From Escherichia phage vB_EcoM-UFV09: a DNA stretch of 64,000 nt. The notes beneath the pieces were generated by a model. The model had not been told where the DNA came from, ran no database searches, and was given only the letters and a program-made list of their open reading frames with translations. A program made the translations under genes and the position numbers. The stretch lies in the sequence record MZ291552.2. One strand, given 5' to 3'. This document shows, one piece after another, positions 18,501 through 45,610 of this stretch (the first letter of the stretch is position 1; every line of letters begins with the position of its first letter).

Positions 18501-18633
18501 AATGAGTCCTTTATTTGATGCATCTGGAACAACATTTGCACAATTTAGAGATTTAGTTAATAAACGTCTAAAAGATAATATAGGAAATCCAAGAGACCCT
18601 GAAAATCCAACACAGGTTAAAATAGATGAATGA
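15535..18633 (+). CDS. 7: gp7 baseplate wedge initiator
   Basis: 1032 aa; ATGA overlap with gene 6. Confidence 0.97.
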   Translation: MTVKAPSVTSLRISKLSANQVQVRWDDVGANFYYFVEIAETKSNSGKNLPSNQYRWINLGYTANNSFFFDDADPLTSYVIRVATAAQDFEQSDWIYTEEFETFATNAYTFQNMIEMQLANKFIQEKFTLNNSDYVNFNNDTIMAALMNESFQFSPSYADVSSISNFIIGENEYHEIQGSIQQVCKDINRVYLMESEGILYLFERYQPVVKVSNDKGQTWKAVKLFNDRVGYPLSKTVYYQSANTTYVLGYDKIFYGRKSTDVRWSADDVRFSSQDITFAKLGDQLHLGFDVEIFATYATLPANVYRIAEAITCTDDYIYVVARDKVRYIKTSNAPIDSDPLSPTYSERLFEPDTMTITGNPKAVCYKMDSIGDKVFALIIGEVETLNANPRTSKIIDSADKGIYVLNHDTKTWKRVFGNTEEERRRIQPGYANMSTDGKLVSLSSSNFKFLSDNIVNDPETAVKYQLIDAVKYEFPREWLADKHYHMMAFIADEKSDWETFTPQPMKYYAEPFFNWSKKSNTRCWINNSDKAVVVYADLKYTKVIENIPETSPDRLVHEYWDDGDCTIVMPNVKFTGFKKYASGMLFYKSSGEIISYYDFNYRVRDTVEIIWKPTEVFLKAFLQNQERETPWSPEEERGLADPDLRPLIGTMMPDSYLLQDSNFEAFCEAYIQYLSDGYGTQYNNLRNLIRNQYPREEHAWEYLWSEIYKRNIYLNADKRDAVARFFESRSYDFYSTKGIEASYKFLFKVLYNEEVEIEIESGAGTEYDVIIQSDSLTEDLVGQTIYTATGRCNVTYIERSYSNGKLQWTVTIHNLLGRLIAGQEVKAERLPGFEGEIIRGVKGKDLLQNNIDYINRSRSYYVMKIKSNLPSSRWKSDVIRFVHPVGFGFIAITLLTMFINVGLTLKHTETIINKYKNYKWDSGLPTEYADRVAKLTPTGEIEHDSVTGEAIYEPGPMSGIEYPLPGDYNTENNNSVFQGQLPSERRKLMSPLFDASGTTFAQFRDLVNKRLKDNIGNPRDPENPTQVKIDE

Positions 18634-19630
18634 TTCAAGTGTTATCTATCGTGCGATAGTTACTTCAAAATTTAGAACAGAAAAAATGTTGAATTTTTAT
18701 AATTCAATTGGAAGTGGTCCGGATAAAAACACTATCTTTATCACATTTGGAAGATCAGAACCGTGGTCATCAAATGAAAATGAGGTGGGCTTTGCCCCAC
18801 CTTATCCTACCGATTCTGTATTAGGTGTAACTGACATGTGGACTCATATGATGGGAACAGTAAAAGTTCTTCCATCAATGCTTGATGCTGTTATTCCTCG
18901 CAGAGATTGGGGAGATACTAGATATCCGGATCCATACACATTTAGAATTAATGATATTGTAGTGTGCAACTCAGCTCCTTACAACGCTACTGAATCAGGC
19001 GCAGGCTGGTTAGTATATCGTTGTTTAGATGTTCCTGATACCGGAATGTGTTCAATAGCATCTTTAACTAATAAGGATGAATGTCTTAAATTAGGTGGAA
19101 AATGGACTCCTTCTGCTAGGTCAATGACTCCTCCTGAAGGCCGAGGAGATGCTGAAGGAACAATTGAACCTGGCGATGGATATGTATGGGAATATCTTTT
19201 TGAGATTCCGCCTGATGTATCTATAAATAGATGCACGAATGAGTATATTGTAGTTCCTTGGCCTGAGGAATTAAAAGAAGACCCGACTAGATGGGGGTAT
19301 GAAGATAATCTCACTTGGCAGCAAGATGATTTTGGATTAATTTACCGTGTTAAGGCAAATACTATCCGTTTTAAAGCATATTTAGATTCAGTTTATTTTC
19401 CTGAAGCTGCATTGCCGGGAAATAAAGGATTTAGACAAATATCAATAATTACGAATCCTCTTGAAGCTAAAGCTCATCCAAATGACCCAAATGTTAAAGC
19501 TGAAAAGGATTATTATGATCCGGAAGATTTAATGAGGCATTCGGGCGAAATGATTTATATGGAAAATAGGCCACCTATTATTATGGCAATGGATCAGACA
19601 GAAGAAATCAATATTCTGTTTACATTTTAA
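18626..19630 (+). CDS. 8: gp8 baseplate wedge protein
   Basis: 334 aa; T4 order. Confidence 0.97.
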   Translation: MNDSSVIYRAIVTSKFRTEKMLNFYNSIGSGPDKNTIFITFGRSEPWSSNENEVGFAPPYPTDSVLGVTDMWTHMMGTVKVLPSMLDAVIPRRDWGDTRYPDPYTFRINDIVVCNSAPYNATESGAGWLVYRCLDVPDTGMCSIASLTNKDECLKLGGKWTPSARSMTPPEGRGDAEGTIEPGDGYVWEYLFEIPPDVSINRCTNEYIVVPWPEELKEDPTRWGYEDNLTWQQDDFGLIYRVKANTIRFKAYLDSVYFPEAALPGNKGFRQISIITNPLEAKAHPNDPNVKAEKDYYDPEDLMRHSGEMIYMENRPPIIMAMDQTEEINILFTF

Positions 19631-22365: not shown

Positions 22366-23024
22366 TGAGTTTACTTAATAATAAAGCGGGAGTTATTTCC
22401 CGCTTAGCAGATTTTCTTGGTTTTAGAACTAAGAAAAATGATATTTCGGTTATGAATAATCAGCCGGTAGGTGCTGTAACAATTTCACAAATAGCAAAAG
22501 GTTTTTATGACCCAAATGTAGAATCTGCTATCAATGATGTTAGAAATATGGCAGAGCAACAGGTTGGAGCTGTATTAGTTAATATAAGTGGCGTATCTCC
22601 TACCGGCGTGCAGCAAACAGACTATTGGTCATTTGAAGGAACTGTTACTGATACTTCAGCCAAACCAGGTGACCCAGTTATTGTTAATATGTTTGGCATT
22701 CCTGTTAAAGCTACTAATGGAATGACTTCAATCGAATTTACCAGTGCCGTTAGAACAGCTCTGCAGGAAATGGTTGCAAAATTTATTGCAATTGATTCAT
22801 TTGAAGACCATCCTACCATAGGAAATAAAATACAAGTTAAGTATTTAGATAACCAAGAACATATCTTAGAACAATACTCTGATAAAGGAATTACTTTCAA
22901 ACAGGAAATAATTTCTCCTTCTAAACCTGGGTATGGAACTTGGCAATTATTAGGTGCGCAAACTGTTACGCTAGATAGTCACACCCAACCTACAGTATTT
23001 TATTATTTTGAGAGAATAGCATGA
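22365..23024 (+). CDS. 11: gp11 baseplate wedge / short tail fibre attachment
   Basis: Start set at the ATG at 22365 ([13 protein letters not shown]...), 219 aa; the ORF-track start at 22347 lies inside gene 10. Confidence 0.95.
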
Positions 23025-24571
23025 GTAACAATACATATCAGCACGTATCAAATGAATCAAAATACGTTAAATTCGATCCTGCAGGATCGAATTTTCCTGA
23101 CACTGTCACGACAGTGCAGTCAGCATTATCAAAAATAAGTAATATCGGCGTAAATGGTATTCCTGATGCAACTATGGAAGTTAAAGGAATAGCAATGATT
23201 GCATCGGAGCAAGAGGTTTTAGATGGAACTAATAATTCTAAAATCGTTACACCAGCTACATTAGCAACAAGATTATTGTATCCAAATGCTACTGAAACTA
23301 AATATGGATTAACGCGCTATTCAACAAATGAAGAAACTTTAGAAGGCTCAGATAATAATTCATCAATAACGCCGCAAAAACTGAAATACCATACTGACGA
23401 TGTATTCCAAAATAGGTATTCATCTGAATCATCAAATGGAGTTATTAAAATATCATCTACTCCTGCGGCTTTGGCTGGTATAGATGATACTACGGCGATG
23501 ACTCCGTTGAAAACCCAAAAACTCGCAATAAAATTAATTTCGCAAATAGCTCCTTCAGAAGACACAGCATCAGAATCTGTTAGAGGTGTAGTTCAGTTAT
23601 CAACTGTCGCTCAAACTCGTCAAGGAACTCTCCGCGAAGGATATGCAATTTCTCCGTATACCTTTATGAATTCTGTTGCAACACAAGAATATAAGGGTGT
23701 TATACGTTTAGGAACACAATCAGAAATTAACAGTAATTTGGGAGATGTTGCAGTAACAGGTGAAACATTAAATGGTCGAGGAGCTACCGGTTCTATGCGT
23801 GGGGTAGTAAAATTAACGACGCAAGCCGGTATTGCCCCTGAAGGTGATAGCTCTGGAGCATTAGCATGGAACGCAGATGTAATTAATACTCGCGGTGGAC
23901 AAACTATTAATGGTTCTTTAAATTTAGATCATTTAACAGCAAATGGAATTTGGTCGCGCGGCGGAATGTGGAAAAATGGCGATCAACCTGTTGCCACTGA
24001 AAGATATGCGTCCGAAAGGGTTCCAGTTGGAACTATTATGATGTTTGCTGGAGATTCAGCTCCTCCTGGTTGGATTATGTGTCATGGTGGAACCGTGTCA
24101 GGAGATCAATATCCTGATTATAGAAACACAGTTGGAACGAGATTTGGTGGCGATTGGAATAATCCTGGCATTCCTGATATGCGAGGTCTTTTCGTCAGAG
24201 GAGCTGGTACTGGTGGTCATATTTTAAATCAACGAGGGCAAGATGGTTACGGGAAGGATAGACTTGGTGTAGGATGTGACGGAATGCATGTTGGCGGTGT
24301 TCAAGCACAACAGATGTCATACCATAAACATGCTGGTGGTTGGGGAGAATACCAAAGACATGAAGCTCCATTTGGCGCGTCCGTTTATCAAGGATATCTT
24401 GGAACTGGAAAACATGCCGACTGGGATAATGCTTCATACTTCACTAATGATGGATTTGAATTAGGTGGACCGAGAGATGCCCTTGGTACACTTAATCGTG
24501 AAGGATTAATTGGTTATGAAACTAGACCATGGAATATATCATTAAACTATATTATTAAAATTCATTACTAA
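23021..24571 (+). CDS. 12: gp12 short tail fibre
   Basis: 516 aa; T4 order. Confidence 0.97.
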
Positions 24572-41850: not shown

Positions 41851-41939
41851 GTTATTGAGTTGGTGCCATTATATACATCGTTTTCTGATTGTGTTTTGTG
41901 TGCTTTCAAAATGAAGAAAGGGGCCGAAGCCCCTTACGA

Positions 41940-43358
41940 TTATGGATAGGTATAGATGATACCAGTTTCTAAAGCTGTTTTGTGAATGATGTATCCATTA
42001 CGCGATTCTTGGACATCAACTTCTGGATAGTCTTTCATCATCTTCTGAAGCGTATAACGATGCAAGTAGTACTTACTATCTGGGTCGTCAGTTTTCCAAT
42101 CTTTACCTTCTTCAGTCATTTTTTGGATTTCATCCATAACCCACCAACCGCACCAGATATAAGCTGAAGTACGGTGCGGAAGAGGATGAACATAAGGCAA
42201 TTCACCTTCTGGTTCTGGAGCAACTTTATCAGTCACTTGAACTTGACCTGTTGTTTTAACTGTTTTGCTATCATAATCAGTTGCTGTAACGACAGCAGTA
42301 ACTTCAATAGTTTGACTTCCAACAGATGAGGTATCGACAGTATATACGTTAGTTGACCCTTCTACAGGAGAAGAATCTTTCTTCCACGAGTAAGTAATTT
42401 GTGCTTCTTCTGGAGCATCCGTAACATTAGCAGTAAATGTAGCCGAAGCATCTTGCTGAACGTTAATAGAAGGAGGAGTCAATGTAACCTGTGGATTCAT
42501 TGTCTTCTTATTAACTGTCAATGATACTTCATTAGAAGTAACTTCCTTTTCATTGTAATTTTCTGCTGTTACTTGGGCTACGCATTTAATTCTTTTTACT
42601 CCACTTGTAGTTGGAGTATAGCTAAATGTAGAGTTAGTTTCTCCACCAACTTGTGAATCATCTACATACCATTTATATGTAGCAGACGCTCCATCAGGTT
42701 GAGAAGCTAAGGCAGCAGTAAATTGAACTGGGGTTCCAATTACTCCAGCTGAAGGACTAGCAGGAGTTACTGCCAATGTAGTTGTCTGTGTCTTTTTATT
42801 AACAGTCAGTGATACTTCATTCGAAGTAACGGTTTTTTCATCATAATTTGTCGCGGTTACTTGAGCTACACACTTGATTTTTTTAACTCCGCTTGCGGCA
42901 GGAGTGTAATTGAATGTAGCAGAAGTCGCTTCGTCTACAGGAGAACTGTCAACGTACCATTGATACGTAGCAGATGCACCTGATGGCTGCGAAGCTAAAG
43001 CAGCGGTAAATTTAACAGCTGTTCCAATTACTCCTGCTGGAGGACTATTGGGAGTTACGGCTAAGGTAGTCGTCTGAGTTTTGTTTTTGACTGTGATAGT
43101 TGTAGTAGCTTCTGCTGTTTCAGCTTCAGATTCTGGAACTGTATTTGTTGCAACAACTTTAATAGTCTTTTAACCAGCAGGACCTTTTAATACATAATCA
43201 AAAGTTGCTTCAGACCCATCTTGTGGAGCATTATCTACACTCCAAGCATAAGTAATAGTTCCACCTCCAGTTTCACCACTGGGTGCAGCAGTAAACTGCT
43301 TGGTTTCATCAATAACTCCTGACGGTGCTTTAGGAGTTATATCAACTGTAAAAGCCAT
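41940..43358 (-). pseudogene. hoc: hoc outer capsid decoration protein, interrupted by an in-frame TAA at codon 63 and carrying an extra Ig-like domain
   Basis: One continuous minus-strand frame from the ATG at 43358 to the stop at 41940, with a TAA at 43170-43172 where the T4 sequence as I recall it has Gln; translation on both sides is Hoc (MAFTVDITPK... and ...LAVTPASPSAGVIG...YTYP). Confidence 0.85.
42504..43079 (-). repeat. Diverged 2 x 288-bp tandem duplication inside hoc (duplicated Ig-like domain)
   Basis: Two consecutive 96-codon units both start TQTTTLAVTP and end EVSLTVNKK; the T4 Hoc sequence I recall has this unit once. Confidence 0.8.
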
Positions 43359-43367
43359 AAGTTATCC

Positions 43368-44048
43368 TTATTTTAATGTTACGAAAGAAGAATTGCGTGT
43401 TTCACGAATTAAAACTGATCCGTCGCGATTAATGTAATAAATTAAGCTAAACAAAGTTTGGTGTGCTGACGCGTGTTCAAAACTAGTTGGATGAGATTTC
43501 CAATCAGGAGTTTCAGCGATCCATTGATAAATCCACCAAGGAACCGTACAGAATCCTGGATTTTTCCCCAATAATTGAAGATTCGGGCTAAAGTTTTCCG
43601 GAAGAGTAAATACAGACGGCTTTTCAGATTCAATAATCTCAGCTACAGCTTGTTCAAACTTTTCTTCAACAAAAGGAGTGTCTTCAATCAAAACATCAGT
43701 ATTTTCAGGAATTTTATCCGTTTCTACAACTTCAATTTTAATATCAGATTTAACTGGAGAATCAATCAGAAGCGCTGCTTCTGGATTAACTTCTTCATCG
43801 TCATATTTTAATCCCTCTGCAGCATCAGCAGCATCAATTAAGTCTTTAATAGATAACCCATCAGTCTCTGGCATAGGTTCACTAGCGAGCTTCTGGAGGG
43901 CTTCTTCAATATCAACAACGATATTATCAAAAGATTTATTCTTTTTGACCTTTATACCAAACTGTTCAGCATATTCAGCTAATTTAGCTTTAGCTTCTTT
44001 ATTATCATCAAGAGCCTTCAGCTCTGCAATATAATCTTTATCTATCAT
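43368..44048 (-). CDS. inh: Inh, inhibitor of the prohead protease gp21
   Basis: 226 aa, acidic; position between hoc and uvsW. Confidence 0.85.
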   Translation of the reverse strand: MIDKDYIAELKALDDNKEAKAKLAEYAEQFGIKVKKNKSFDNIVVDIEEALQKLASEPMPETDGLSIKDLIDAADAAEGLKYDDEEVNPEAALLIDSPVKSDIKIEVVETDKIPENTDVLIEDTPFVEEKFEQAVAEIIESEKPSVFTLPENFSPNLQLLGKNPGFCTVPWWIYQWIAETPDWKSHPTSFEHASAHQTLFSLIYYINRDGSVLIRETRNSSFVTLK

Positions 44049-44061
44049 AATATTTCCTCAG

Positions 44062-44069
44062 TATAAATA
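44062..44069 (+). promoter_or_regulatory. T4 late promoter TATAAATA for uvsW
   Basis: Exact TATAAATA about 30 nt upstream of the uvsW ATG. Confidence 0.55.
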
Positions 44070-44098
44070 TAGATATATTTATTACATGGTATTTAGAC

Positions 44099-45610
44099 AT
44101 GACTGACATTAAAGTACATTTTTATGATTTTAGTCACGTGAGAATTGATTGTGAAGAAAGTACATTTCATGAACTCCGTGATTTCTTTTCGTTTGAGGCC
44201 GATGGATATAGATTTAACCCTCGCTTCAGATATGGCAACTGGGATGGACGAATCCGTCTTTTAGATTATAATCGCCTTCTTCCATTCGGCTTAGTCGGGC
44301 AAATTAAAAAGTTCTGTGATAACTTTGGCTATAAAGCCTGGATTGACCCACAAATTAACGAAAAAGAAGAATTATCAAGAAAAGATTTTGATGAATGGCT
44401 TTCTAAATTAGAAATCTATTCAGGAAATAAAAGAATTGAACCACACTGGTATCAAAAAGATGCAGTGTTCGAAGGATTAGTTAATCGTCGTAGAATTCTT
44501 AATCTTCCAACATCTGCAGGTAAATCTTTAATTCAAGCTTTGCTTGCACGTTATTATTTGGAAAATTATGAAGGTAAAATTCTTATCATTGTTCCAACAA
44601 CTGCTCTGACAACTCAGATGGCTGATGACTTTGTTGACTATCGTTTATTCAGTCATGCAATGATAAAGAAAATTGGTGGCGGAGCATCAAAAGATGATAA
44701 ATATAAAAATGATGCACCAGTCGTTGTTGGTACATGGCAAACTGTAGTAAAACAACCAAAAGAATGGTTCTCACAATTTGGAATGATGATGAATGATGAA
44801 TGTCATCTTGCTACAGGAAAAAGTATTTCATCTATCATATCAGGTTTAAATAACTGCATGTTCAAATTTGGTCTATCAGGTTCATTACGTGATGGCAAAG
44901 CCAATATCATGCAGTATGTTGGAATGTTCGGTGAAATATTTAAGCCAGTAACGACTTCTAAATTAATGGAAGATGGGCAAGTAACTGAGCTAAAAATTAA
45001 TAGTATTTTTCTTCGTTATCCTGATGAGTTCACTACTAAATTAAAGGGAAAAACTTACCAAGAAGAAATAAAAATTATTACTGGGCTCAGTAAAAGAAAT
45101 AAATGGATCGCTAAATTAGCTATTAAGCTTGCGCAAAAAGATGAAAACGCTTTTGTCATGTTTAAACATGTATCGCACGGTAAAGCTATTTTCGATTTAA
45201 TTAAAAATGAATACGATAAAGTTTATTACGTATCAGGGGAAGTTGATACCGAAACCCGCAATATAATGAAAACCTTAGCTGAAAATGGTAAAGGAATAAT
45301 TATAGTAGCTAGTTATGGTGTATTTTCTACTGGTATTTCAGTTAAAAATCTGCATCACGTTGTTTTAGCGCACGGTGTTAAATCAAAAATCATTGTATTA
45401 CAAACAATCGGTCGTGTATTACGTAAGCATGGTTCTAAAACAATCGCAACTGTCTGGGACCTCATAGATGATTGTGGTGTTAAGCCAAAATCTGCTAATA
45501 CGAAAAAGAAATATGTTCATTTGAACTATCTTTTAAAACACGGCATTGATCGTATTCAGCGCTACGCAGATGAAAAATTCAATTACGTAATGAAAACAGT
45601 TAATTTATAA
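44099..45610 (+). CDS. uvsW: UvsW recombination/repair helicase
   Basis: 503 aa; Walker A PTSAGKS and DECH box (MMMNDECH). Confidence 0.95.
   Translation: MTDIKVHFYDFSHVRIDCEESTFHELRDFFSFEADGYRFNPRFRYGNWDGRIRLLDYNRLLPFGLVGQIKKFCDNFGYKAWIDPQINEKEELSRKDFDEWLSKLEIYSGNKRIEPHWYQKDAVFEGLVNRRRILNLPTSAGKSLIQALLARYYLENYEGKILIIVPTTALTTQMADDFVDYRLFSHAMIKKIGGGASKDDKYKNDAPVVVGTWQTVVKQPKEWFSQFGMMMNDECHLATGKSISSIISGLNNCMFKFGLSGSLRDGKANIMQYVGMFGEIFKPVTTSKLMEDGQVTELKINSIFLRYPDEFTTKLKGKTYQEEIKIITGLSKRNKWIAKLAIKLAQKDENAFVMFKHVSHGKAIFDLIKNEYDKVYYVSGEVDTETRNIMKTLAENGKGIIIVASYGVFSTGISVKNLHHVVLAHGVKSKIIVLQTIGRVLRKHGSKTIATVWDLIDDCGVKPKSANTKKKYVHLNYLLKHGIDRIQRYADEKFNYVMKTVNL

Follow-up and report, generated by a model that had tools for sequence, protein, structure and literature searches.

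A common two-unit hoc allele carrying an early ochre codon in a Tequatrovirus genome sequence

A tandem repeat within the hoc gene of a Tequatrovirus genome raises the question of whether the phage carries a new form of Hoc and whether that form is made at all. Hoc is a highly immunogenic outer capsid protein that sits, like a fibre, as a decoration in the middle of every capsid hexamer. An earlier note on the DNA analysed here (the window, a stretch of 64,000 nt) described one Ig-like domain encoded twice in succession, and speculated that the changed number of domains may alter what the capsid binds. We describe here the locus, its repeat and its relatives, together with a premature stop codon that lies ahead of both repeat units.

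The hoc region (1.5 kb) is 100% identical to those of Escherichia phages vB_EcoM-UFV10 and UFV11 and 99.9% identical to those of UFV05 and UFV06. These four Tequatrovirus phages were isolated from Brazilian wastewater, and their genomes come from a single laboratory and pipeline. Window ORFs were compared with the T4 and ECP52 annotations; inh lies upstream and homologues of 24.3, 24.2 and rnlB lie downstream, on the same strand. The C-terminal domain is homologous to T4 Hoc residues 281 to 376, and the N-terminal part is a string of Ig-like domains by Pfam PKD, AF2 and Foldseek. The definition of the C-terminal domain, its role in capsid binding and the fibre architecture have been described (PMC10385173). 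With its capsid-binding domain, Ig string and synteny, the locus is identified by sequence as the hoc gene (Table 1). The frame runs on the minus strand from an ATG at 43358 to a TAA at 41942-41940 and is colinear, without gaps, with the 1,419-nt hoc of RB30 and the intact 472-aa hoc of ECP52. It is not open over its full length, being interrupted by a TAA at codon 63. A scan of the hoc strand from 41900 to 44120 gave no T4 late-promoter motif (TATAAATA).

T4 Hoc (NP_049793.1; PDB 5vf3 chain Z) is encoded at the same locus, between inh and 24.3. Common to both are domains 1 and 3, one unit and a near-identical C-terminal capsid-binding domain; T4 Hoc differs in having a single copy of the 96-residue unit. 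T4 also has the homing-endonuclease gene segE beside inh, between inh and uvsW. This gene is absent from the window, where inh (43368-44048, minus) and a uvsW-like helicase gene (44099-45610, plus) are 50 nt apart (44049-44098). The UvsW-like ORF is 503 aa long, and the UFV05 annotation adds a separate 77-aa "DNA helicase" ORF downstream; T4 RefSeq gives uvsW as one 587-aa CDS, with sequence discrepancies remarked for that section.

Table 1. Features of the hoc locus and mutational events separating the window from UFV05 (window coordinates)
Feature	Position	Strand	Remarks
hoc reading frame	41940..43358	-	472 codon positions, then the terminal TAA; codon 63 breaks the frame
Ig-like domain 1, codons 1-93	43080..43358	-	Holds the stop; 86.4% nt identity to T4 domain 1
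Premature ochre TAA, codon 63	43170..43172	-	C187T; CAA (Gln) in relatives; 'GPAG*KTIKVV'
Repeat unit 1, codons 94-189, extra Ig-like/PKD-type domain	42792..43079	-	Absent in T4; 89.6% nt identity to RB30 unit 1
A7 run in unit 1 ('GVKKIK')	42878..42884	-	Intact in the window
Repeat unit 2, codons 190-285, orthologous to Ig-like domain 2 of T4 Hoc	42504..42791	-	90.6% nt identity to the T4 unit
Ig-like domain matching T4 Hoc domain 3, codons 286-376	42231..42503	-	88.8% nt identity to T4 over the 285-nt segment 42219-42503, which overshoots the domain boundary by 12 nt
Capsid-binding domain at the C terminus (counterpart of residues 281-376 in T4 Hoc)	41943..42230	-	94.9% nt identity to T4 and dN 0.004, from the last 276 nt (41943-42218)
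Terminator-like GC hairpin and T-run (AAGGGGCTTCGGCCCCTT, then TCTTCATTTT)	41918..41935	-	5 nt past the hoc stop; consensus match only
Event: 9-nt repeat-copy change, gp8-like gene	19477	+	UFV05 comparison
Event: three clustered nonsynonymous changes, gp12-like short tail fibre gene	24407, 24413, 24416	+	UFV05 comparison
Event: hoc nonsense, codon 63	43172	-	Window side
Event: hoc frameshift, codon 27	43280	-	UFV05/UFV06 side
Event: one synonymous SNP			Window versus UFV05

Tandem Repeats Finder reported one strong array at 42501-43076 (288-nt period, 2.0 copies, 76% matches, score 663). Together with an in-register alignment, it bears out the two consecutive 96-codon units that the earlier note had placed at 43079-42792 and 42791-42504 on the minus strand. 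Both units encode TQTTTLAVTP...EVSLTVNKK, with many substitutions as claimed: they are identical at 215/288 nt (74.7%) and 76/96 aa (79.2%), and third codon positions hold 46 of the 73 nucleotide differences. Because of these identities, the common motif and the third-position differences, the repeat is real, in frame and well past chance level.

The statement that T4 has the domain once also stood when the two sequences were aligned. T4 hoc (1,131 nt, 376 aa) lacks exactly 288 nt, one unit, in a DNA alignment to the window. The T4 unit shares 90.6% nucleotide identity with unit 2, its orthologue, and 77% with unit 1, the extra copy. In a phmmer search of the PDB, residues 189-472 of the 472-aa ECP52 homologue matched T4 Hoc (5vf3_Z) at its residues 93-376 (E = 8e-224). 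By these comparisons the allele belongs to a five-module class, with four Ig-like domains and the capsid-binding domain, against four modules in T4, as had been proposed. The proposed frame of about 472 aa is right as to length (472 codons plus stop) and wrong as to product: with TAA at codon 63, no 472-aa Hoc is encoded.

The fold of the repeated domain was assessed on intact homologues. On the 472-aa ECP52 protein, the Pfam PKD family (PF00801) scored 38.2 bits, above the gathering cut-off of 23.5, with its best stretch at residues 195-267 in unit 2; T4 Hoc scored 24.0 bits. Stretches matching Pfam Ig_3 and I-set at residues 289-356 (domain 3) fell below gathering scores. An AF2 model of an intact 472-aa homologue that is 94% identical (P0009) had a mean pLDDT of 82.8. 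It contains four beta-sandwiches (residues 1-92, 94-188, 190-284 and 286-376), each at about 90 (domain 1 at about 85-93), and the strand pattern is shared by both units; the capsid-binding domain at the C terminus was modelled poorly (pLDDT 35-65). The top Foldseek matches in the PDB were strings of four Ig domains (Sidekick Ig1-4, Dscam Ig1-4 and ICAM-5 D1-D4), with probability 1.0. These results support the view of the repeat as one Ig-like (PKD-type) domain that was duplicated in tandem and has diverged.

The two-unit hoc allele is already known and common, and is not new. The hoc gene of RB30 (GenBank accession number AY101183.1, protein AAM52483.1) is a CDS of the same 1,419 nt, colinear with the window frame at 91% nucleotide and 91% amino acid identity. 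Its two Ig-like units, each of 288 nt, occupy matching positions and are 76% identical between themselves; they share 89.6% (unit 1) and 93.8% (unit 2) nucleotide identity with their orthologues in the window. A repeat_region note in AY101183.1 states that an additional immunoglobulin-like domain arose by intragenic repeat. The window allele falls in this RB30-type class, having two 288-nt tandem units between domains 1 and 3 and a frame of 1,419 nt. The two genes differ in that RB30 hoc is open, with CAA at codon 63, and in their divergence of about 9%, which lies mostly in unit 1 and in domains 1 and 3. Other genomes with two-unit hoc include RB27, PP01, AR1 and ECP52.

Unit numbers were counted with tblastn, using unit 2 alone as the query (E <= 1e-20) and taking each copy as a separate place. 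This count was chosen because megablast coverage, which joins non-colinear pieces and gives 100% coverage for one-unit genomes also, could not separate unit numbers and was dropped. The search found 922 units in 646 phage records (1.43 per record). Of 60 records sampled at even spacing, 36 had one unit, 22 had two and 2 had three, with a mean equal to the overall 1.43. The two-unit allele is accordingly present in roughly 37% of Tequatrovirus records, a frequency that comes from this sample and the overall mean and is not a full census. The rarity implied by the earlier note did not hold, and with more than 200 independent genomes concerned, assembly artefacts are an implausible source of the two-unit records.

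The survey of Hoc lengths that the note had recommended gave a regular series. Among the best 120 clusters in a large protein collection, 78 were 376 aa, 29 were 472 aa and 7 were 568 aa long, with a few near-variants. These lengths rise in 96-residue steps, and the two-unit form is the intermediate. Hoc homologues are known to carry variable Ig-like strings of 1 to 10 domains (PMC10385173), and the variation in Ig-domain number has been noted elsewhere (PMC11853027; PMC13435897). The pattern in such length variants is a conserved capsid-binding domain with a variable Ig string, as here, and the number and identity of the domains differ. A two-unit T4-type hoc, 90% identical to the window unit, was also found in MG010123.1 ("Staphylococcus phage SAJK-IND", 32 kb), a record that is probably mislabelled or contaminated.

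The divergence between the units was compared with that between phages. By the Nei-Gojobori method, unit 1 and unit 2 differ with a dS of 1.44, a dN of 0.138 and an omega of 0.10, against a dS of 0.25-0.41 for the other hoc segments between the window and T4. By these values the two copies split well before T4 and the phage of the window diverged, and both have been under purifying selection. Contraction of the array was traced by scoring the 73 sites that differ between window units 1 and 2. In NBEco003, whose hoc has a single unit, variants of unit 1 give way to those of unit 2 at about nt 81-89, and the single unit of Ec_O157kw switches from unit-1 to unit-2 variants at about nt 183-188; each has only 1-2 private changes. 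Chimeras of this kind are what a crossover between the two units, with loss of exactly 288 nt, is expected to leave, and such a loss took place at least twice independently. Because the chimeric single units have different breakpoints, unit number also falls by recombination between the repeats. These clean chimeric units, showing repeated contraction of the array, are a mildly new point. The unit of T4 resembles unit 2 over most of its length and unit 1 at sites within roughly its first 20 nt, and gives a weak hint of the same process. A sorting of all one-unit Hocs into chimeras at the protein level was abandoned. Across phages the units are so mosaic that one residue is strictly diagnostic (P versus Q at unit position 47), and breakpoints were for that reason mapped at the DNA level in close relatives only.

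How the array arose is a separate matter: it may have formed by duplication in situ, or two alleles that had diverged may have been joined through unequal recombination. Under the second proposal, one unit would be ancestral, and unequal recombination in a mixed infection would have joined diverged alleles of domain 2. One-unit Hocs exist in both states at position 47 in the central segment (unit-1-like in 42 clusters, unit-2-like in 34), the units are highly mosaic with their single diagnostic residue, and the hoc of YUEEL01 has three units that are themselves mosaic. Against this, the one-unit forms of close relatives are chimeras, unit 1 at the 5' side and unit 2 at the 3' side, near-identical to a two-unit parent, which is the signature of deletion. 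We regard joining as a minority possibility; it touches the origin alone and otherwise fits our main explanation. A quite different proposal, that the duplication is a recent, lineage-specific novelty creating a new five-module architecture, can be given next to no credence. That T4 itself has one unit speaks for it, but the dS between the units is several-fold deeper than the split between T4 and the window, orthologous arrays occur in RB30, RB27, PP01, AR1 and ECP52 and in about 37% of the sampled records, and the feature is annotated in AY101183.1. On the dS, the widespread arrays and that annotation, any description of the duplication as recent or unique was dropped.

The premature TAA at codon 63 lies outside any homopolymer and is present in the window and in UFV10 and UFV11, which are two separate deposits. 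The codon is CAA in T4, ECP52, UFV05, UFV06, NBEco003, Ec_O157kw, YUEEL01 and RB30, and also in SfPhi01, UPWr_E2, vb_GEC_SH_GT, FN and ACG-C40; no other relative examined has TAA. Because of this codon, the ORF listing for hoc gives just a 62-aa ORF (43170-43358) and a TTG-started 278-aa ORF (41940-42776). The UFV10 GenBank annotation splits hoc likewise, with the 278-aa TTG ORF called as a CDS by PHANOTATE. Downstream of the stop, that TTG, at codon 195, is the first start in frame and has no Shine-Dalgarno sequence; the next ATG is codon 287. None of the 11 tRNAs found by ARAGORN in the 64-kb window has a suppressor (UAA-reading) anticodon, and the sequence leaves room for low-level ochre read-through of codon 63. 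By prediction, the product is a 62-residue fragment that has no capsid-binding domain and the virions carry no Hoc. Since the stop truncates hoc, the extra Ig domain is probably never made in this phage. The suggestion that domain number alters capsid binding is inapplicable here, barring sequence error or suppression, because the ochre codon precedes both units.

A precedent exists in T4 HAP1 (T4 delta-Hoc), in which a spontaneous C496T ochre mutation in hoc leaves a viable phage whose capsid is without functional Hoc (PMC10580926). As in the window, a C-to-T change makes a TAA in hoc. The HAP1 stop lies at 44% of the 376-aa gene and that of the window (C187T) at 13% of the 472-codon gene; HAP1 is a selected laboratory mutant, whereas the UFV phages are natural wastewater isolates. 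An exact-pattern scan of IMG/VR found the nonsense allele in 0 contigs and the wild-type control in 1, so its power is very low. A literature search for UFV10 gave no match, and the one paper that mentions vB_EcoM-UFV phages covers neither these isolates nor Hoc.

Two readings would restore some form of Hoc to the particle. In one, the TAA is an error of sequencing or of the consensus, and an intact 472-aa Hoc with five modules is made. The stop is a single base of a deposited consensus in which all other relatives examined differ, the four UFV genomes share one laboratory and pipeline, and other deposits with a split hoc are often broken at A-runs typical of homopolymer errors. This base is, however, a substitution away from any homopolymer and recurs in both the UFV10 and the UFV11 deposit; the consensus looks clean, with just five mutational events between the window and UFV05 over 64 kb; the siblings inactivate hoc by a different lesion; and a spontaneous ochre mutant of hoc is documented in T4. 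We judge an error improbable. The other reading keeps the stop and has translation re-initiate downstream, for example at ATG codon 287, leaving domain 3 and the capsid-binding domain as a stub on the capsid. The in-frame starts at codons 195 (TTG) and 287 (ATG), the purine-rich AAGAAG before ATG 287 and the PHANOTATE call would allow it, but a good, properly spaced Shine-Dalgarno sequence is missing at both starts, and HAP1, with its stop at 44% of the length, has no functional Hoc on its capsid. The chance of such a stub is slight.

Hoc is also interrupted, by another lesion, in the siblings. UFV05 and UFV06 have a 1-nt deletion at codon 27, outside any homopolymer, in which one A is lost from CCCAGTGG to give CCCGTGG, and the frame shifts. 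The hoc gene makes up 2.2% of the window and received 2/5 of the events between the window and UFV05 (binomial probability 0.005). Both hoc events are inactivating and lie on different lineages.

The other differences from UFV05 were located as follows. In the short tail fibre CDS (about 23021-24571, plus strand), G463R, H465Y and A466T lie within a 10-nt stretch of the C-terminal part, a cluster that looks like receptor-binding adaptation between near-identical isolates. The gp8-like baseplate wedge CDS (about 18626-19630, plus strand) has a 9-nt copy difference of CCAAATGAC, reading HPNDPNV in the window and HPNDPNDPNV in UFV05.

In five other deposited Tequatrovirus genomes, hoc is split by frameshifts. 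The A7 run encoding 'GVKKIK' in the unit-1-type domain is the frameshift site in three of the five (UPWr_E2, vB_EcoM_FN and ACG-C40); these may be real slippage or mutation, or homopolymer sequencing errors. The independent knock-outs in sibling isolates and the recurrent A7-run frameshifts are mildly new points. They can be taken further, into a picture of hoc as a switchable, contingency-like decoration locus that is recurrently lost under selection and whose presence and length are tuned to the environment. That picture draws on the sibling knock-outs, the gain and loss of units by repeat recombination and the A7 run frameshifted in other genomes, and also on the fact that two of the other three UFV events fall in virion proteins (short tail fibre and baseplate). 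Selection may favour loss of hoc when, for example, phages are propagated without mucus or animal surfaces. We offer this view as speculation that is rather unlikely to hold as a whole.

Our main explanation, held with high confidence, is that the region is a Tequatrovirus hoc gene of a common, described two-unit class, with ancient copies and a unit number varied by recombination, and that in this phage it is null by an ochre codon at Gln63. In outline, the second Ig-like (PKD-type) domain is present as two tandem 96-residue copies, both kept by purifying selection, and homologous recombination between the units generates one-, two- or three-unit forms in the population. A C-to-T change has converted Gln63 (CAA) to TAA upstream of both units, and the resulting null allele would yield the short fragment and a Hoc-less virion. 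Intact alleles of this class would be expected to form a longer fibre.

The duplication itself adds little, as Hoc length variants, with this very two-unit form among them, are already on record in GenBank annotation and the literature. The speculation on altered binding fits the intact alleles of other phages, not this phage. Hoc mediates adherence to mucus and cell surfaces and, in T4-type capsids, serves as the main site for display and for immunogenicity. If the particles of UFV10 and UFV11 are Hoc-less, their mucosal persistence, immunogenicity and pharmacokinetics would be expected to differ, which matters for any use of these two isolates in biocontrol. That sibling isolates carry parallel knock-outs suggests a Hoc that was dispensable or costly under the conditions that those phages met.
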